Of a stretch of 64,000 nucleotides of DNA, positions 9,459-46,152 are shown one piece after another. Origin of the DNA: Candidatus Eiseniibacteriota bacterium (GTDB lineage: Bacteria; Eisenbacteria; RBG-16-71-46; JABDJR01); assembly GCA_963762255.1 (NCBI GenBank), contig CAVXKA010000001.1:160001-224000 (forward strand), given 5' to 3'. Positions within the stretch are counted from its first letter, which is position 1, and every line of letters starts with the position of its first letter. The notes below the pieces were generated by a model. The model did no database searches and was not told the origin of the DNA. It saw only the letters and a list, made by a program, of their open reading frames with translations. A program made the translations under genes and the position numbers.

Positions 9459-10172
9459 ATGTCCAAGGTTCCCATGTCCGGCCGTCTCACCGCCGAGTTC
9501 GTCGGCACGTTCTGGCTCGTCCTCGGGGGCTGCGGCAGCGCCGTGCTCGCCGCCAAGTTTCCGAACCTGGGGATCGGATTCGCCGGCGTCGCGCTCGCCT
9601 TCGGTCTCACTGTCCTCACCATGGCCTTTGCGATCGGCCACATCTCCGGGTGCCACTTGAACCCGGCGGTTTCCTTCGGCCTGTGGGCGGGCAAGCGGTT
9701 CCCGTCCTCCGATCTCGTCCCGTACATCGTCGCGCAGGTGCTGGGCGCGATCGCCGCGGCGGCGGTGCTCTACGTGATCGCGTCCGGCCAGGCAAACTTC
9801 GACGCCGCGGCCTCCGGCTTCGCCGCCAACGGCTACGGCGAGCACTCCCCGGGCAAGTACACGCTCCTCGCCGCGCTGGTGTGCGAGGTCGTGATGACGT
9901 TCATGTTCCTGTTCGTCATCCTCGGCGCCACCGATTCGCGCGCGCCGGCGGGCTTCGCGCCGATCGCCATCGGACTTTGCCTGACTCTCATCCACCTGAT
10001 CAGCATTCCGGTCACCAATACGTCCGTGAATCCGGCACGGAGCACCGGCCCCGCGCTCTTCGCCGGTGGCTGGGCGCTCGGTCAGCTCTGGCTTTTCTGG
10101 GTGGCGCCGATCCTCGGTGCGGTCCTCGCCGGGATTTTTTATCGCTCGACGATGGAGGCGAAGGGGAAGTAA
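9459..10172 (+). CDS. aqpZ: aquaporin Z
   Basis: [50 protein letters not shown]. Confidence 0.95.
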
Positions 10173-10306
10173 TCGGCCTTGGGTGAGCTATAATTGGACG
10201 CAGACATCACGGACTCGTGACCGTGGACATTGTGCCGCGGGCCCCGCCCACCCCGGGGCTCGCGGGCGTTCATCATCGTGTTGCACAACTTTGGGGGGAA
10301 TCACCC

Positions 10307-10729
10307 ATGCGATCCGCACCTGTGCTGTTCACGGCCGCTCTCATCGTTGCCTCGCTCGTACCCGCCGCGGCCTCGGCGGGGAACCCCAATGCCTCATCGC
10401 GCACCAAGGCCACGTACGCGCGGGAGTTGCCGCTCTCCCAGGCCGGCACCTGGACGGTGAATCCGCTGCTCTCGCGACGCCTGGTCGAGGTCTCCCCCGA
10501 CGTCTTCGCGGCGGTCAAGGGGAAGCACGAGCGACGGCACGTACGCATCGCGCGCTGGATCGAGGGGCTCCGCGGCGAACCGCGGACGGTCTTCGCGCGT
10601 GAAGGCATGCCGGTCTACCGCTACCGCGAACTCGTGGACAGCCATCTCTTCGAGATCTGGACCTACCCGGAGCGGCATCTCTCCTACGTGTTCGAGGGTG
10701 ACCGGCTGGTGGGCACCGAGCCCTTCTAG
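10307..10729 (+). CDS. hypothetical exported protein
   Basis: Signal peptide (MRSAPVLFTAALIVASLVPAAASA), GC3-biased codons, C-terminal EIWTY...YVFEGDRLV. Confidence 0.6.
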   Translation: MRSAPVLFTAALIVASLVPAAASAGNPNASSRTKATYARELPLSQAGTWTVNPLLSRRLVEVSPDVFAAVKGKHERRHVRIARWIEGLRGEPRTVFAREGMPVYRYRELVDSHLFEIWTYPERHLSYVFEGDRLVGTEPF

Positions 10730-37875: not shown

Positions 37876-37994
37876 CGGCCCCACAAGAACCCGCACACTT
37901 CGAAGACAGCGCAACACGCGCTCATGTTGGTCCGTTTATAATCGTGCGCCTCACCCCCCGGTCCTCAAAGTCCACCATCCCACTGAGGACTGAT

Positions 37995-40683
37995 ATGTCC
38001 ATGAGCCACTTCTGCCGCCGATACGCGAGACGAGACGGATCCGGCCCCGCGCCGGTATCGCGACGCATCGCCGGCGTTCTCCCGCTCGCGTTCTTCGCGG
38101 TGACTCTCGCGACGACACGCCCCGCAGCCGCGGCGTTCCACACGTTCGAGCCGACCGGCGACGATGCGCAGTACCCGCCGACCGCGAACGGCCGCCTCAT
38201 CGGCACGCCGACGGTTCGCACCTACTCGCTTTCGCGCGGCGAGAGCATCACGGTCGACGGCAAGCTGGACGACCCTGTCTGGCTCAAGGCGGAAGGGGCG
38301 ACGGGATTCACGGTGTGGGAGCCTGATCGCGGCAAGACGCCCTCCGAGGAGACCGTCTTCAAGGTCGCTCACGACCAGGATGCGATCTACTTCGCGGTCG
38401 CCTGTCCGGAGAAGGACGCGGCGAAGATCAGCAAGAAGCTCTCCCGGCGCGACAAGTTCAGCAACTCGGATCTGGTGAGCGTCTACATCGACCCGTATCA
38501 CGACCGCAGCACCGGCTACAACTTCCGGGTGAACCCGCTGGGCGTGCAGACCGACGCCTATATGTATAACGACGGCGAGCGCGACGACGACTGGGATGCG
38601 GTGTGGGAGGGCGAGGTGACCGAGGACGCGGGCGGCTGGTACGCGGAGATCCGCATCCCGTTCTCGGCCATCCGGTACCGCCCCGGCCTCGATACCTGGG
38701 GGCTGCAGGTCTACCGCTATATGCATGGCCGCGGCGAGGACACGGCGTGGGTGACGTGGAACCGCGAGCAGAGCGGGTTCGTGAGCCGGTTCGGCACCCT
38801 CATGGGCCTGGAGGACGTCCCCCCTCCGCGCCAACTCGAGATCCTCCCCTACGCGGTGGGGCGCGCTTCCGACCCGGTCGCTCCGCGCAGCGAGGACGGC
38901 ATCGACGGACTCGGAAACTTCGGAGCGGACCTCAAGTACGGCGTCACCTCCGACCTCACCCTGAACGGTACCTTGCAGCCCGACTTCGGCCAAGTGGAGG
39001 CCGACCCGGCCGAGCTCAACCTCTCCCCCTTCGAGACCTTCTTCGAGGAGAAGCGCCCGTTCTTTATCGAAGGGAGCCGGTTCTTCCAGCAACCGGTCTT
39101 CACGATGTTCTATTCGCGGCGGATCGGGACCGGCGACGCCAACTCCCGCATCCGTTACGCGACCAAACTCACCGGCAAGACGAAGTCCGACGTTTCGGTG
39201 GCCGCGCTCGCCGCATCCACCGACGTGACCGGAGAGGGCCAGGCCCACAACTTCCTCAAGAGCGGAGATCAGACTGCGCGCTACTTCGTCACGCGCCTCG
39301 GCAAGGAGTTCGCCCAGGGGCGATATCGTTTCAACGTCATGCAAACCGCGGCGCTCAGGAGCGCCGACCGCACGACCTACGGCGACTTCGCCTCGCGCGA
39401 TGCCTATACCACCGGCCTCGATTTCGATCTCAAGTTCAAGGATCGCAAGTACCGCATGGTGGGAAACTTCGCCGGCTCGGTGGTGGATCCCCGGGCTCTC
39501 CCCGACGATCCGCGGAGCGGCTTGTCCAGATACGGCACGGGCGGCCATCTCGAGGCCCAGCGCACGGCAGGAAAGGTGCTCGTATCGGCCTGGGGGCACT
39601 GGGAGACCGACCGGCTCGATCTCAACGATCTCGGGTACCTGCAGGCCCCCGACGAGATCAACCTCGGCGGCTGGATGCAGTACCGGTACAACCCCGAAGG
39701 CAAGAACAAGCATGTCAATCAGGCCCAGCTGACCCTGAACCTGTGGAGGATCATGACTGTACGGTGCCCGCACCGGCTACGACCTCCATACCCGGGAGCC
39801 GATCTGGTCCTACGGGCGGGGGTTCTTCCAGAGTCACGGCGCCACCCTCGAGCCCTGGATCCAATTTCGAGACTACCGGGAGCTATGGGCGGGGCTCGAA
39901 TACGGCTCCGAGAACAATCAGCGTTACGAGACTCGGAGCACGGTGATGCTCCTGCCCGACGCCCACGGAAACGTCGTGGAAGCGCCCATTCCCGGAGGCG
40001 GGCCGCTCATGAAGGATCCCTTCTCGTATGGCGGCTGGGTGGGAGGCAGCAGCGATACCCGCCGGGACTTCGTGGCGCAGGCCACCGGGATCTACTTCGA
40101 GGATACGGCCAAGAACACGGTCAGCGAGCTGGAGACCTCGGTGCGCTGGAACCAGTCGAGCGCGGTGAACCACGAGCTGATCCTCAACTACGAGTACCGG
40201 CGCGACGACACGCAGCACCTGGGGAACTACGAGAACACCAACGGCGGGATCGGGGGCGTGAGCTACGTCTTCGGCGTGTTCCGCCAGCGCACCGTGGATC
40301 TGACCCTGCGCACGAGCCTCCTGTTCGACCGGGATCGGTCGCTCGAGATCTACGCTCAGCCGTTCATCACGGTGGGGAACTACACCCAGGCCAAGGAGCT
40401 GGCCGCGCCGTTCACCTACGACTTCATCCCTTACACCCGCGACGGGTTCAAGGCCTCCGACCACGACTTCAGCTACACGTCGGTCAACGTGAACGCGGTG
40501 TACCGGTGGGAGTACCGGCCGGGGAGCACGTTCTACCTGGTGTGGGCGCACAACCGATCCGACTACTCGGAGCGCGCGGCGGGGCCGCAGCACTTCAACA
40601 ACCGCCTGCGGACGGGGGCGTTCTTCGATACCGAACCGGGAAACACGATCTTGGTCAAGATCAGCTATTGGATTCCGGTCTAG
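37995..40683 (+). pseudogene. CBM9-like sugar-binding + DUF5916 outer-membrane protein, interrupted by one +1 frameshift near 39756
   Basis: ITVDGKLDD...W, FRVNPLG, W-AEIRIPFS, PDFGQVEAD...NLSPFE-FF-EKRPFF-EG, FYSRRIG. The coding frame switches +1 after NLWRIM and ends in RWEYRPGSTFYLVW...KISYWIPV. Confidence 0.8.
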
Positions 40684-42000: not shown

Positions 42001-42026
42001 AACCGCCCGAAGCACGATGTCCCGCG

Positions 42027-42057
42027 GAGGCGGCTCTCAGATCCTGGGGGCCGCCTC
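42027..42057. terminator. hairpin between convergent genes, probable terminator
   Basis: GAGGCGGCTCTCAG-ATC-CTGGGGGCCGCCTC followed by TTCATTC. Confidence 0.55.
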
Positions 42058-42062
42058 TTCAT

Positions 42063-44249
42063 TCAATCGCTCTCGTTTCGGAAGCGCTGCCGCACTTCGG
42101 GCTCGACGCGTCGCAGCACGATCGGAGCGGCGGTGACCTGCCGCCCCGACTCCAGCACGATCTCGCGGATGGCGGAATCGCCCAACTGCACGCCCTGGGG
42201 CAGGCTCCACTCCGCGATCTCCAACGTGGCCGGGCCCGCGTCGAGGCCGGTCAGCGCGAACTTCCCATCGCCGTCGGTGAACACGTCGTGGTGGCTTCCG
42301 CGCAGGCGGATGAGGATGTCGGGCACGCCGACGAAAGACCCGCTCGCGTCCCTCGCGACGACACGTCCCTCCACCCCGGCCGCGCGACGGATCGCGAAGT
42401 CGGCGACCGCGTCCTCTCCCGGACGCAGACGGAGCGGAATCCGGTCGCGGGCCGGCGCGAGGTACCGAGTGGCCAGGCGCGCCGGATCGAAGAGTACGAA
42501 GTCGAGCCCGGGCTCGGCATGCTCCAGGCGGTATGAACCGTCTCGCGCGGTGATCATCTCCTCGCCGCTCCCAAGCCGAACCGTGAGGCCGGGTATGCCC
42601 GGTTCTCCGGCGTCGCGATTGCCGTTCGCGTTGAGGTCCTCGAAGACCACACCGCGCACCGAGCCGAACTCCGGCAGACCTTCAATCGTTTCCAGGCGAC
42701 CGCCCCCGAACGAGAAGCTGCGGCTCAACCGCAGGTTCACGCGGGCTGCATCGGGGTCGCGCGCGCCCGCGCGGACGTAGGCGAAGCCCTCGATTCCGAC
42801 GGTCAGATCTCCGAAGATGCCCTGCCGCCATCCCCCGCCGATTTGCCATTGATCGCGCGCAAACTCCTCGTCGTCCGCATCCTGCCGCTCGCGGGCGAGA
42901 CTCAACCAGAGACTTCTCTCGTCGCCGGGATCCCACGCGATGCGGGACTCCAGTCGACGCTCGCGACTCGTCCAGCGGCCGTTCGGGAGCCGGCGCTCCA
43001 CGCTCGCGCCCAGGAGTTCCAGGTTCAGCGTCTCACCCAACCGCTCCGACAGGCGGGCGGTCACGCGATCCTCGTGCCAGTCGCCGGCCTCCTGCGCGGG
43101 ATCGCGGAAGAGGCCGCGCGAGTAGCCGAGGCTGCCGCCGTGGACCCGCGTGCGCCATCCGATCTCCCCTCCGCCGTTGAGGACGCCTTGATCGACCAGA
43201 AGGCTGTCCGGATCCACGGTCGAGCGCGCGCGGTACGCGGCGGTGGTTTGAACGTAGAGCGGACGAACGAGGGGCACGGTGGAGAAAGCGCGCAACGACA
43301 CGCGCTCCTCGGGTGGAAGGCCGTCCGCGCGTCGCGTCAGATCGCGCGCCCAGTCGGCCGCCGCACCCAGGTACATGGCTGGCCGCGGACGGAGACCGGT
43401 CTCCAGACGCGCGCCCCACTCGTTCTCGTGCGGGCCGCGCAGGAGTCCGAGATCGCGATACGCAGGGGCGATGCGGCGCGCATGCCCCGAGATCACCGAG
43501 TGCTCGCCGGTGCGAGTGAATCCCGCGACGACGGTCGTGCCGAGGCGCGACGACCCGTCCTCCCTCGACACGCTCAGATCGCCGAGCCACGACCACCCGC
43601 GCGCCGCGTTCGCGGCGACGAGCAGCCGGGAAACCTGAAGGCCGGCGGGGCGCTCAGGCAGTGCTTGCTGGCGGTCCCACGAGAGATCCCAGCGACGGCG
43701 TGACCCCAGACTTCCGCCCAGCCCGAGCCCGAGTACGCCGGAATCGGTGGACGTGCGGCCCAATGCGGCGCCTCCCTGCCTCTCGGTGAGCGCACCTCCC
43801 CGCACTTCGACGCGCAGATCTCCGCGCCTCAATCCCCATCCCGCTCCGCGCAGCCATACCGGGGGGTGGAACTCCGAGGCCAGGTCGCTCCCACGCTCAT
43901 TTCCCACCGCAAAGTCGCCGAGGTGAACCGCCATTCGGCCGACCGTGGTGGGGATGTCCGCGCCGGTCAGGCGGAATTCCCGGCCGCGTTCCGACACGTC
44001 CATCCACAAGGACCACGCTCCGGAGTTGGCCGGAAAGGCGACCCCGTCGAGGTGGTACACCCACTCTTCACGATGCCGTGCAGTACCGTAGGGGCCCCAT
44101 TCCGCGTGCTGCCGCTCGACCCACGCACGAAACTCGCTGCGCGGCCAGGCGGCCGCGCATGCCGAGGGAAGCGCGGCGACGAGCGCAAGTGCGGCGATGA
44201 GGAGGGAGCCCGACGCAAGGATGCGTCCGGTCCGCGGCGCGTCGGACAT
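42063..44249 (-). CDS. usher-like outer-membrane beta-barrel protein with two C-terminal SdrD-B/prealbumin-like domains
   Basis: Signal peptide; LGDF...LRGA usher-like motif; amphipathic Trp/Arg-rich strands; GxVFEDLNANGNRDAGEPG and VEGRV...TDGDGKF domains. Confidence 0.65.
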   Translation of the reverse strand: MSDAPRTGRILASGSLLIAALALVAALPSACAAAWPRSEFRAWVERQHAEWGPYGTARHREEWVYHLDGVAFPANSGAWSLWMDVSERGREFRLTGADIPTTVGRMAVHLGDFAVGNERGSDLASEFHPPVWLRGAGWGLRRGDLRVEVRGGALTERQGGAALGRTSTDSGVLGLGLGGSLGSRRRWDLSWDRQQALPERPAGLQVSRLLVAANAARGWSWLGDLSVSREDGSSRLGTTVVAGFTRTGEHSVISGHARRIAPAYRDLGLLRGPHENEWGARLETGLRPRPAMYLGAAADWARDLTRRADGLPPEERVSLRAFSTVPLVRPLYVQTTAAYRARSTVDPDSLLVDQGVLNGGGEIGWRTRVHGGSLGYSRGLFRDPAQEAGDWHEDRVTARLSERLGETLNLELLGASVERRLPNGRWTSRERRLESRIAWDPGDERSLWLSLARERQDADDEEFARDQWQIGGGWRQGIFGDLTVGIEGFAYVRAGARDPDAARVNLRLSRSFSFGGGRLETIEGLPEFGSVRGVVFEDLNANGNRDAGEPGIPGLTVRLGSGEEMITARDGSYRLEHAEPGLDFVLFDPARLATRYLAPARDRIPLRLRPGEDAVADFAIRRAAGVEGRVVARDASGSFVGVPDILIRLRGSHHDVFTDGDGKFALTGLDAGPATLEIAEWSLPQGVQLGDSAIREIVLESGRQVTAAPIVLRRVEPEVRQRFRNESD

Positions 44250-45055
44250 CAATCCCCCAAGGAGGCCCGCGTCGGCTCCAGGGTGCACTCGCCGATCAAC
44301 CGGCCGAAGTCGGCGAGATCGACGGTCACGCGCGCCAGAGCTTCCGGCACGAGACCGCCTTCCGGAATTTCGATGTCCACCCACCGCGACGACCCGGGCA
44401 GCACCGGAACATCGGGAAGCTTGCCGGGAGCACAAAGAGCGCATTCGCCGACCAGATACGCCACGTCGCCGGCCAAACGGAAGTGCGCGTCGCCGGTATT
44501 GTGAACTCGCATGCGCAGGCAGGGCCGGTCGCCTTTCGTCACCACGGAGAGCGAGGTGATCTCGGCGGAAAGCGCGGGGCGTCCGACCGTGATGTAGAGC
44601 ATGCAGGCCACGCGACCGCGCACGTGCATGAGACGACCCGTCGACTTCGCGCGGTTCAGCGGCACGGATTCCAGCAGGAGCGCGGCCCGGAAGCCGTGAG
44701 CGACCGCCCGCTCGGGCACCAGGACGGTGAACCGGACGACCTGAGTCTGGCCCGGCTCGACCAGAAAATCGCGCGGCGCGAAAGAAATCCATGGCGCCGC
44801 CGAGGCGAGGGTGGTTCCCGCGGGCTCGAAGAGCGGCGTCCCCTCCTGATCGAGATGCCAGTCCTCGACGTAGGCGCGCAGACGCACCGCCTCCGTCCCG
44901 TTGTTCTGCACCTGGACCGCATTCGTGTACTCGGAGCCCGGCTCCGCCTGCAGCTCGAACCGGACGGGAGACACGTCGATCGAGAGATTGGCCCGAGCCA
45001 TCCCTGCGGGAGCCAGGGCGACGACGGCGAGCACGGCGATGATCTGTCTATGCAT
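44249..45055 (-). CDS. PapD-like periplasmic pilus chaperone
   Basis: Signal peptide; VSPVRFEL, VQNNG, WISFAPRDFLVEPGQTQVVRF, second Ig domain with VHNTGDAHFR. Confidence 0.72.
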   Translation of the reverse strand: MHRQIIAVLAVVALAPAGMARANLSIDVSPVRFELQAEPGSEYTNAVQVQNNGTEAVRLRAYVEDWHLDQEGTPLFEPAGTTLASAAPWISFAPRDFLVEPGQTQVVRFTVLVPERAVAHGFRAALLLESVPLNRAKSTGRLMHVRGRVACMLYITVGRPALSAEITSLSVVTKGDRPCLRMRVHNTGDAHFRLAGDVAYLVGECALCAPGKLPDVPVLPGSSRWVDIEIPEGGLVPEALARVTVDLADFGRLIGECTLEPTRASLGD

Positions 45056-45088
45056 GATGACCTCGTGGAGTGGCGCGCACGTTGCCAC

Positions 45089-45529
45089 TCATGGCGATGA
45101 AAGCGTCAGGGTCGCGGTGGCTGTGTAATCTCCCGGCGCAGAGTCCCAGGAGTTCTGGAGGTAGAAGCCGAGAGTCGCGGTCGCCGTGTAGTGACTGACT
45201 CCATTCCCGAGAACCGCCGGCACCACAGTGGACAGCACTCCGCCACGGAAGGGCGGGCTCGGTGACGCGGTCCACGAGACGTTTCCGATCGGGATCACGT
45301 CGGTGCCGGATGTCAGGTCGGAGTTGGCGATCATGGTAAGTATCCAGGGACTGCCGGGGGTCGCCCGAGCATCGACCTTGACACTGAGGTTTCGTGGGCC
45401 GATCACCGGCACGATGTCGGGACTTCGATCCGGGAAGCTCACCGATCCGGTGATCGTGAGCGTGAGCGGGCCGGCGTGAGCGGGTGGTGGCGCGCCGAGA
45501 CAGAGCGACACCACCACGCCGATTAGCAC
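45089..45529 (-). CDS. minor pilin-like subunit (paralog of 45646-46152)
   Basis: FPD..PD, ANSDLTSGTD-I-IGNVSWTAS and NSW...GDYTATATLTLSSP align with the major subunit. Start uncertain (GTG 45529). Confidence 0.68.
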   Translation of the reverse strand: MLIGVVVSLCLGAPPPAHAGPLTLTITGSVSFPDRSPDIVPVIGPRNLSVKVDARATPGSPWILTMIANSDLTSGTDVIPIGNVSWTASPSPPFRGGVLSTVVPAVLGNGVSHYTATATLGFYLQNSWDSAPGDYTATATLTLSSP

Positions 45530-45645
45530 CGCCGTGGACCGAATGCCGCGGCCGCAGCTCCCCGTGACGGAGAGCTGCGCGGCCGTAGCTCGGCATGTGA
45601 ACCGACCTTCGTATCCCAACAGACGATCCCCCCCGGGCGCTGCTG

Positions 45646-46152
45646 TTAGGGTGCAGTCAGGGTGTAGACCACATCCTGCGTGTAGTTGCCCACCGCGTAG
45701 GCCCAGGAGTTGTCCAGAAAGAAATCGAAGGTGCCGGAACGCGAGCCGGAACCCACCCAGCTTCCCGCGGACTGCGCGACGGCCGCGTGCATGGTGCCCG
45801 GGCCGTACCCGGCACCGCTCGCGGTCCAGGTGACATTGTCGATGTCGATCAAGTCCGTTCCGCTGACCAGGTCCCCGTTGGCGAGACAGGTGAGGGTGGC
45901 CACGCCGGCGCCCGTGGTGCGAATCTTCGCTTCCACGGATACCGAGTTCTCGGTGGCCGGGATGGGATCGACGACGTCGGGATCGGCGTCGGGGAAGTTG
46001 ATGGTGGTCGGGGAGATCGTCAACTTGGCCCGAGCGGACACCGTCGCGTTGATGGTGAGCGTCTTCGAGTCGCTTGCCGCGTCGGCCAACAGAGGGGTCA
46101 GGGCCAGGGCCAGCATTGCCAGCCCCAGCACGAGAGAACGGTTCTTGGTCAT
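45646..46152 (-). CDS. major pilin-like subunit
   Basis: AGGAG RBS, signal peptide, N-terminal alternating strand KTLTINATV, C-terminal GNYTQDVVYTL; rich in T/A/S/G. Confidence 0.72.
   Translation of the reverse strand: MTKNRSLVLGLAMLALALTPLLADAASDSKTLTINATVSARAKLTISPTTINFPDADPDVVDPIPATENSVSVEAKIRTTGAGVATLTCLANGDLVSGTDLIDIDNVTWTASGAGYGPGTMHAAVAQSAGSWVGSGSRSGTFDFFLDNSWAYAVGNYTQDVVYTLTAP

Follow-up and report, generated by a model that had tools for sequence, protein, structure and literature searches.

A Four-Gene Operon of Exported Proteins

The DNA analyzed here is a 64,000-nucleotide stretch (the window) of a contig from a Candidatus Eiseniibacteriota bacterium, and the subject of the analysis is an operon of four co-oriented open reading frames (ORFs) on its minus strand (window positions 42063–46152) that was studied as a candidate system for the assembly of a surface fiber. 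The first gene (45646–46152, minus strand) encodes a pilin-like protein of 168 amino acids, pilin 1, with a signal peptide at about residues 1–25 and a mature part of about 143 amino acids, which is the candidate major polymerizing subunit. The second gene (45089–45619, minus strand) encodes another pilin-like protein, pilin 2, with 176 amino acids when read from a TTG codon that follows a ribosome binding site (GGGGGA) by 7 nt. The position of this start is uncertain; the mature protein begins at about G50 and is the candidate tip or initiator subunit. The third gene (44249–45055, minus strand) encodes a two-domain chaperone-like protein of 268 amino acids with a signal peptide at about residues 1–22, and the fourth (42063–44249, minus strand) encodes a large outer-membrane protein of 728 amino acids, the proposed secretion pore or assembly platform. 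The stop codon of the chaperone gene and the ATG of the large gene share one base (TGATG). A signal-peptide-like segment is found at the start of all four products, in agreement with a first-pass annotation made from the DNA alone, which had described four co-oriented exported genes at this site.

Conservation and Distribution of the Gene Order

The order pilin 1, pilin 2, chaperone, and large protein was identified by tblastn with the four proteins in seven loci (L014, L015, L016, L017, L018, L020, and L022), which are all the loci with at least 2 kb of upstream sequence among the 12 loci that carry the large gene. The hits in L015 and L016 are identical and the seven loci therefore represent six distinct ones. 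On two short contigs (L019 and L001) the chaperone gene lies directly upstream of the large gene, and two further loci (L003 and L021) begin inside the large gene. A separate observation concerns L023 (positions 1–1784), where the large gene is present only from residue 236 on and the 1.3 kb upstream do not resemble any other part of the operon; this is a truncated copy or a chimeric contig and it was excluded from the synteny count.

Scans of contig collections yielded one genome locus and 10 metagenome loci, and a motif-limited scan of species-representative genomes yielded one short locus, within the genome of a member of the same genus (G001). The large protein is seldom found: seven relatives, 40–47% identical, came from 5.8 billion proteins in a word-indexed search. 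In a set of 61 genomes from the same class, the large protein has a full-length match in two, the window's genome and a genome of the same genus whose copy of the gene is divided over two contigs. The other 41 of the 61 genomes with a match have it in the C-terminal domains only (a tally that includes G054). Homologues of the other proteins are more numerous, with 82 for the chaperone (profile of the close family) and 387 for the pilins (E ≤ 0.01). The occurrence of the genes in the same order elsewhere, together with the tens to hundreds of homologues per gene, shows that the four-gene unit is not a chance arrangement.

The named homologues belong to metagenome-assembled genomes (MAGs) labeled Candidatus Eisenbacteria (two chaperones and one pilin) and to one MAG labeled Dongiaceae. 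Sparse labels of Acidobacteriota, Thermodesulfobacteriota, and Pseudomonadota are attached to the clusters that neighbor the pilin and the chaperone in a protein language model. A location of the system outside the Proteobacteria, which the first-pass annotation had proposed, is plausible. The host genome (93.6% complete) contains seven matches to the Omp85 family, whose presence indicates that the host bears an outer membrane, and no match to LptD.

Two Paralogous Pilins, One with a Free N-Terminal Tail

Pilin 1 and pilin 2 are paralogues with 32% sequence identity. In the AlphaFold 2 (AF2) model of pilin 1, built from 75 sequences with a predicted local distance difference test (pLDDT) score of 88.4, the strands begin at residue 41 and residues 26–40 remain outside the fold. 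This N-terminal extension (ASDSKTLTINATVSA, 46033–46077, minus strand) is a candidate donor strand. Its alternating pattern is conserved in 48 pilin-1 sequences (L32 in 46/48, position 34 with isoleucine in 37 and valine in 9, A36 in 46/48, and V38 in 47/48), with T33 and N35 standing between the conserved hydrophobic residues. At the opposite end of the protein, the C-terminal strand (residues 155–168, GNYTQDVVYTLTAP, 45649–45690, minus strand) contains five residues, G155, Y157, T164, L165, and P168, that are invariant in the same 48 sequences. As modeled, pilin 1 is an incomplete immunoglobulin (Ig)-like fold with an N-terminal extension.

An alignment of both paralogues from seven loci revealed that pilin 2 does not have the tail of about 15 residues, its mature N-terminus starting two to five residues before the first core strand in all seven aligned sequences. 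A subunit without a tail could accept a strand but could not donate one, and would thus enter the fiber first and end up at its tip. In chaperone–usher pili, the subunit that accepts but does not donate a strand forms the distal tip, and by analogy pilin 2 may be located at the tip of the fiber. One of the seven loci contains a third gene of the pilin-1 type, with an N-terminal tail, directly after the large gene (L014, positions 10085–10597, plus strand); the window operon contains no such gene.

A comparison of the pilin 1 model with the PDB by Foldseek placed CfaB first (E = 2.7e-4), followed by CS17, FimG, the pilin domain of PapG, and Caf1, with PapE, CsuA/B, FimA, and PapA among the further matches. 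A second aligner that is independent of Foldseek placed the environmental fibril proteins TLP-1a and TLP-1b first (Z = 8.5, 139 aligned residues, root-mean-square deviation [rmsd] 3.2–3.3), followed by the pilin domain of CfaE (Z = 8.1 and 7.6) and CsuA/B (Z = 7.0), and lower in the order by archaeal cannulae and threads, PapA, EcpA, and TasA. Nearly all proteins in these lists are subunits that polymerize by strand donation.

By sequence, neither pilin belongs to a Pfam or NCBIfam family, a phmmer search against the PDB sequences returned nothing, and the pilin-1 profile found nothing relevant in the PDB sequences, including no match to TLP-1. A weak match to Metal_CEHH in one of 15 pilins was regarded as chance. 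The nearest Pfam-named cluster to the pilin in the language model is WxL (0.94, 179 features), which is to be taken as a lead only.

Several features that the first-pass annotation had read from the letters alone are borne out by these comparisons. The two pilins are indeed paralogous, both the KTLTINATV strand near the N-terminus and the G-x-Y strand at the C-terminus exist and are conserved, and the proposed likeness to CfaB and Csu pilins is reflected in the best structural matches. The lack of the usual pilin disulfide agrees with the cysteine content: mature pilin 1 contains a single cysteine and mature pilin 2 none, which makes a disulfide impossible in either. The signal peptides of both pilins end in A-x-A and there is no lipobox cysteine ahead of the mature part.

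A Soluble Chaperone Related to WxL-Interacting Proteins

The chaperone ends in EPTRASLGD and contains no hydrophobic C-terminal segment or membrane helix, for which reason it should be soluble in the periplasm. A profile of 62 chaperone sequences was compared with all PDB sequences and matched EfmWxLIP1 (9i25_C and 9i1y_A, E = 3e-5) over profile positions 33–242, which correspond to both domains; no PapD, FimC, Caf1M, CsuC, CfaA, or EcpB-type chaperone in the PDB was found with the same profile at E ≤ 10. The chaperone sequence on its own gave no match to PDB sequences with phmmer. With the profile of the close family, PF06030-bearing proteins were recovered (E = 3e-13 to 4e-6), three of which pass the Pfam cut-off, and a C-terminal membrane helix is present in the distant PF06030 relatives P0088, P0089, P0091, and P0092. 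A tblastn search of plasmids with one membrane-anchored DUF916 relative gave no hit. Furthermore, seven of eight close family members show a weak match to WxLIP_PGBD (DUF916), with a best E-value of 0.0056. The language-model neighbors of the chaperone include clusters with PapD_N (0.93) and with WxLIP_HBD (0.92), both of which are leads only, and 18 of the 82 chaperone homologues carry the JGI name “P pilus assembly chaperone PapD.” Judged by these profile comparisons, the chaperone is a distant relative of the DUF916/DUF3324 WxL-interacting proteins (WxLIP) and not a member of the PapD family. Of the PapD-like two-domain chaperone in the first-pass annotation, the two domains therefore stand while the assignment to PapD does not; a kinship with WxL-interacting proteins had not been considered there.

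A complex of the mature chaperone (residues 23–268) and mature pilin 1 (residues 26–168) was predicted with an interaction prediction score from aligned errors (ipSAE) of 0.87, compared with 0.00 for the best of three controls. The score passes a mark that 116 of 157 solved complexes attain, as do 2 of 215 mismatched pairs, a calibration that is only rough because custom alignments were supplied. At least 96% of the contacts are common to the runs, and the partner has a pLDDT of at least 88. In the predicted complex, a candidate donor strand of the chaperone (residues 141–154, RLMHVRGRVACMLY, 44594–44635, minus strand) contacts pilin residues 159–165: chaperone residues 144, 146, 148, and 149 pair in parallel with residues 160, 162, 164, and 165 of the last strand of the subunit. 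The N-terminal strand of the chaperone (residues 25–28) is antiparallel to pilin residues 45–42, and the conserved LPDVP stretch in the second domain (residues 212–217) is also in contact with the pilin. The candidate donor strand has conserved residues (G147 in 55/62, R148 in 58/62, A150 in 57/62, and Y154 in 58/62 sequences), and its part around R148 falls opposite NRIAYNLAV in the alignment with EfmWxLIP1. The two interface strands each contain an arginine, R32 (61/62) and R148 (58/62). The contact geometry of the predicted complex is that of donor-strand complementation. The pilin fold is thus modeled with the tail outside and is completed, in the predicted complex, by a strand of the chaperone.

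A Predicted 26-Strand Barrel with Two C-Terminal Beta-Sandwiches

The AF2 model of the 728-residue protein (17 sequences, pLDDT 82.9, predicted template modeling score 0.61) contains a beta-barrel of 26 strands as assigned by DSSP (residues 37–514, 42708–44141, minus strand). In the model the signal peptide is followed directly by the barrel, and a plug insertion and a periplasmic domain at the N-terminus are both missing. From strand 5 on, loops of 5–16 residues follow the odd strands, and turns of two to six residues follow the even strands, an arrangement that suggests that both ends of the barrel are periplasmic. The last barrel strand ends in a conserved R-R-F-S-F. Two predicted beta-sandwiches follow. 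The first is SdrD_B-like (residues ~529–620, 42390–42665, minus strand; Pfam SdrD_B at 534–587, E = 5.1e-9) and contains a calcium-type loop, D538-x-N-x-N-G-x-x-D-x-x-E549 (42603–42638), in which D538, N540, and E549 do not vary among 17 sequences and the other motif residues vary little or not at all. The second is CarboxypepD_reg-like (residues ~624–714, 42108–42380, minus strand; Pfam match at 626–679, E = 3.6e-7). Given the predicted topology, both sandwiches would be periplasmic. The first-pass annotation had predicted the barrel, the missing periplasmic N-terminal domain, and two C-terminal domains, one with a DxNxNG loop, from the sequence, all of which agree with the model, the Pfam matches, and the conservation of the loop in 17 sequences. 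It had also pointed to an usher-like LGD...LRG motif; the residues concerned are invariant in the 17 sequences (G111-D112 and R134-G135) but their likeness to ushers finds no support, as the protein has no match to the Usher family.

A barrel-only profile (residues 1–522, eight sequences) was searched against 1.84 billion representative proteins and found 17 proteins, eight near full length and nine fragments, all of which belong to the protein's own family (E ≤ 3.6e-14); no usher or other secretion family was found among these representatives. The structural comparisons are less uniform. With Foldseek, the first 11 places for the large protein are taken by full-length FimD and PapC (E = 3.6e-17 to 8e-13, TM 0.28–0.37), and barrel-only usher structures score at ~1e-7, level with TonB-dependent receptors. 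Rigid alignment instead places the 26-strand barrel MtrB first (Z = 20.2, 428 aligned residues), followed by TonB-dependent receptors (Z ~17), with the FimD pore at Z = 16.8 (rmsd 4.6) and the PapC pore at Z = 14.6; the two usher values come from a wide search, ushers being absent from the 50 best of the realigned Foldseek matches. As modeled, the barrel is indistinguishable from other large barrels by rigid alignment, and its likeness to ushers is one of layout (a wide barrel and two periplasmic sandwiches) and not of demonstrable homology. The expected resemblance to ushers is present in the Foldseek order, where FimD and PapC fill the top 11 places, and is not matched by the strand number (26, not 24), by a plug, or by a detectable sequence relation.

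These results bear on the possibility that the locus is an extremely diverged member of the archaic or alternative chaperone–usher pathways, with an usher homologue that has lost the N-terminal domain and the plug and with a diverged relative of PapD. Besides the Foldseek order, the FimD pore has the lowest rmsd (4.6) among the top matches, PapC (7lhg_C) aligns over 441 residues that include the first C-terminal domain, the best pilin matches include CfaB, CfaE, and Csu subunits, and two UniRef names point in the same direction (“Spore coat protei...” for one homologous pilin and “Pili assembly cha...” for one chaperone). However, neither the proteins nor the genome match PF00577, PF00345, or PF05229, no usher came up when the barrel profile was run on the 1.84 billion representatives, and the chaperone profile reached WxLIP in the PDB but, at E ≤ 10, none of the classical, archaic, or alternative chaperones there. 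The modeled barrel is plugless and has 26 strands instead of 24, and MtrB scores above the ushers by Z. Common descent with the chaperone–usher pathways appears unlikely on this evidence.

A Second Locus Type in the Phylum

Of the 206 genomes of the phylum, 39 contain a match to the chaperone profile (E ≤ 1e-5). The close family is confined to the window's genus, and the more distant loci represent a second type that is more widespread. Eight of these distant loci were examined (L036–L043 in the genomes G015, G034, G043, G039, G055, G152, G147, and G062). All eight contain the chaperone homologue followed on the same strand by a protein of 778–1129 amino acids with the same C-terminal module of SdrD_B and CarboxypepD_reg. 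A full-length comparison of the large proteins gave a highly significant match (hhalign probability 99.8%, E = 1e-28) that is driven by the C-terminal module, whereas the barrel-only profile matched the large proteins of the eight distant loci with an hhalign probability of only 1%. The C-terminal module is thus the only part that is demonstrably common, at the level of sequence, to the large proteins of both locus types. The N-terminal part of the distant proteins differs; the long forms add Ig-like domains (NPCBM_assoc and FixG_C) and one protein contains a C-terminal DUF2914.

One or two ORFs with pilin-like character in their last 180–190 residues are located just upstream in 8/8 loci. These ORFs are 179–253 amino acids long, with one longer, and their starts are not fixed. 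The proteins end in ...W-x-x-D-x-P-G-x-Y-x-I-T-L-T-Y-T... (...LLDWT..PG.Y.ITLTYT...) and match the window pilins in the last 35 columns only (hhalign probability 86%, E = 4.6e-6); no Pfam family was found for this second pilin family. In two of the loci (L041 and L042) the second pilin lacks 14 N-terminal residues that the first pilin has.

The recurrence of the pair matters for the question of whether the barrel belongs to the system at all. No secretion family is linked to the barrel by sequence, and the structural comparisons rate TonB-dependent receptors and porins almost on a par with ushers, as would be expected if the barrel were an unrelated porin or transporter beside a chaperone–pilin pair whose fiber is built with no dedicated pore. 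The large gene, however, follows the chaperone gene in every locus that is able to show it and overlaps the chaperone stop codon, all eight distant loci pair a chaperone homologue with the same C-terminal two-domain module, and folded subunits need a wide pore to cross the outer membrane. An unrelated neighbor is accordingly a very improbable explanation.

A Model for Chaperone-Assisted Fiber Assembly

Taken together, the operon probably encodes a chaperone-assisted donor-strand-exchange surface fiber of an outer-membrane bacterium, with a pore that is not an usher. Both subunits would be exported by Sec, and in the periplasm the soluble two-domain chaperone would complete the Ig-like fold, incomplete in each subunit, by inserting its strand 141–154 so that it runs parallel to the strand at the subunit's C-terminus (donor-strand complementation). 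The chaperone–subunit complexes would then be taken to the 728-residue protein, where the two periplasmic C-terminal beta-sandwiches may dock the complexes, gate the pore, or do both, like the C-terminal domains and the plug of an usher. The amphipathic N-terminal tail of an incoming pilin 1 would displace the chaperone strand from the previous subunit, so that the fiber would grow at its base and be threaded outward through the barrel. The tail-less pilin 2 would be incorporated first and would sit at the tip. The subunit fold, the chaperone–subunit geometry, the barrel, the gene linkage, and the WxLIP homology of the chaperone are supported by models and comparisons. Polymerization by strand exchange between pilins is what we infer from the conserved amphipathic tail, and the passage through the barrel and the roles of the C-terminal domains are proposed on a similarly conditional basis. 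The core of the first-pass annotation, a minimal and undescribed donor-strand-exchange fiber system with a noncanonical outer-membrane component, holds up in this form, and each of the three results that it had named as refuting (self-contained pilins, a large protein that is not a barrel, and no co-occurrence of the genes elsewhere) turned out the other way.

A different outcome of the same machinery would be unpolymerized monomers or short oligomers that form a coat, a matrix, or an adhesin layer, with a barrel that holds or exports them in the way that MtrB sheathes MtrA. MtrB is the best barrel match (Z = 20.2), polymerization is itself a deduction, the operon contains no evident anchor or terminator subunit, and WxL clusters have long been read as static platforms (PMC10599100). 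On the other side, the free, conserved tail of pilin 1 with its alternating hydrophobic residues is hard to explain if no strand is donated, the asymmetry of the tails of pilin 1 and pilin 2 fits an ordered fiber, and the nearest structures to the pilin are almost all filament subunits. An unpolymerized product is considered improbable.

Several observations weigh against the proposed fiber. The structural scores of pilin 1 are modest (Z 6–8.5, Foldseek E-values of 1e-4 to 1e-2, TM ~0.4) and lie in the range that is common for Ig-like sandwiches. The families that would be expected from known systems are missing: the WxL model PF13731 has no match in 15 pilins (E ≤ 10) or in the host genome, the SCPU model PF05229 has none in the pilins or the host genome, PapD_N (PF00345) has none at E ≤ 10 in eight chaperone family members or in the host genome, and PF00577 (Usher) has none in the large protein or, at E ≤ 0.1, in the genome. 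On the WxL side, the window chaperone reaches 14.9–15.2 bits with PF06030 against a cut-off of 27.3, and PF11797 (DUF3324) has no match. Since solved chaperone–subunit complexes exist, the score of the predicted complex may reflect the memory of the model, and the pass may come in part from likeness to these complexes, in addition to its rough calibration. By rigid alignment the barrel is nearest to MtrB and no nearer to ushers than to TonB-dependent receptors, so that the link between barrel and fiber rests on gene linkage and architecture, and no gate was identified in the plugless 26-strand barrel, though one is needed. Finally, among the sequencing runs no RNA run is listed for the locus.

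Flanking Sequences

The upstream neighbor of the four-gene unit is a divergent transglycosylase/transpeptidase gene and the downstream neighbor a convergent tetratricopeptide repeat (TPR) gene. DNA sequencing runs share few words with the locus (≤0.16). A scan for consensus promoters identified 0 sites, and terminator-like sites were found at about the expected number (2 vs 1.6), both within genes. The 62-nt gap between the convergent stop codons (42001–42062) contains a G+C-rich inverted repeat, GAGGCGGC ... GCCGCCTC, which has no T-run and was not called by the terminator scan. Farther downstream (37899–40683, plus strand), a gene with CBM9 and DUF5916 domains is apparently divided over two reading frames: positions 1–300 of the DUF5916 profile lie in a frame that ends near 39770 and positions 357–563 in an ORF at 39943–40683. 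This division suggests a frameshift or an assembly error.

Comparison with Known Systems

Chaperone-assisted donor-strand exchange is so far found in two settings, the chaperone–usher pili of Gram-negative bacteria and the WxL pili of the Bacillota. The operon combines both, with a chaperone that is related to the Gram-positive ones but is soluble and periplasmic and a barrel with an usher-like layout that has no detectable relation to ushers. If confirmed, it would represent an evolutionary bridge between the WxL and chaperone–usher pathways, a second, simpler way to thread a folded fiber through the outer membrane with neither a plug nor an N-terminal domain, and a candidate machinery for uncharacterized fibers of soil and sediment bacteria. 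As the organisms are uncultured and environmental, the system is of interest for its mechanism and its evolution. Literature searches brought up no account of a system of this kind in bacteria with an outer membrane, although the supplements of a preprint on WxL pili may hold matches outside the Bacillota.

Three further systems were compared with the operon. The Type V pili of the Bacteroidia (FimA/Mfa) differ in that their subunits are lipoproteins with a lipobox cysteine, which the window pilins do not have, and mature by proteolysis. MtrB of the MtrCAB complex (PDB 6R2Q) is a wide-lumen 26-strand barrel that encloses a folded protein and is the closest structure by rigid alignment, but it is 9% identical with no sequence relation and has no C-terminal beta-sandwiches, and the window operon contains no cytochrome genes. 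The pond-water fibrils of TLP-1a and TLP-1b provide the best structural match to the pilin 1 model, with a modest Z and no sequence match. According to the CryoSeek study, a TLP-1 fibril (PDB 9IKJ and 9IKK) forms as one protomer inserts its N-terminal strand into another, and the fibrils have been assigned neither a producer nor an assembly machinery (PMC11494351). The TLP-1 protomer, as described there, is larger (236–237 residues) and forms an 8-nm tubule.

Among the WxL (Elr-type) pili, the subunits of Enterococcus faecalis polymerize by donor-strand exchange under the guidance of ElrE, a membrane-anchored DUF916/DUF3324 chaperone, as described in a preprint (Sleutel et al., bioRxiv 10.64898/2026.10.17.759780, October 2026). 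The preprint also describes the donor-strand-complementation geometry of ElrE–ElrD, reports the system as confined to the Bacillota, and places the WxL chaperones in a family disjoint from the classical ones, with a membrane helix in 96.7%. The window operon shares with these pili the sequence kinship of the chaperone over both domains, and its candidate donor strand aligns with the corresponding strand region of WxLIP. Two small subunit genes and one chaperone gene are also a shared feature, as the commonest WxL cluster consists of one WxLIP gene and two WxL genes (Hassan et al. 2023, PMC10599100). In contrast, the host of the window operon bears an outer membrane, its chaperone has no helix, and a dedicated barrel is present. 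The WxL fiber is anchored through LPxTG and sortase whereas none of the four window proteins contains an LPxTG motif, the window pilins fail PF13731, and the window chaperone stays below the cut-offs of PF06030 and PF11797. It is a realistic though still tentative possibility that the locus is the outer-membrane counterpart of the WxL pathway, composed of a soluble DUF916/DUF3324-type chaperone and an independently evolved 26-strand pore. If this is true, WxL-type chaperone-guided donor-strand exchange would not be confined to the Bacillota, the function of the usher would have arisen at least twice, and TLP-1 and other strand-swapped fibrils from the environment could owe their assembly to machinery of the broader family.

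The chaperone–usher pili, of which the alternative (CFA/I, class 5) and archaic (Csu/CupE) types are the closest for comparison, differ from the window operon in family membership, as the window proteins lie outside the Usher, PapD_N, and SCPU families. The usher (PF00577) has a 24-strand barrel, an inserted plug, an N-terminal domain, and two C-terminal domains, whereas the window barrel has 26 predicted strands and neither a plug nor an N-terminal domain. The window subunits have no disulfide and the unit contains no gene for a two-domain tip adhesin, as the first-pass annotation had noted. The shared features are those of the process: subunits that are exported by Sec and have an N-terminal extension, a two-domain chaperone that is soluble in the periplasm, a chaperone strand that runs parallel to the last strand of the subunit (in the window, in the predicted complex), and a large barrel followed by two periplasmic beta-sandwiches. 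The locus fails the sequence membership of both the chaperone–usher and the WxL systems and yet, to judge from the models, works like both.

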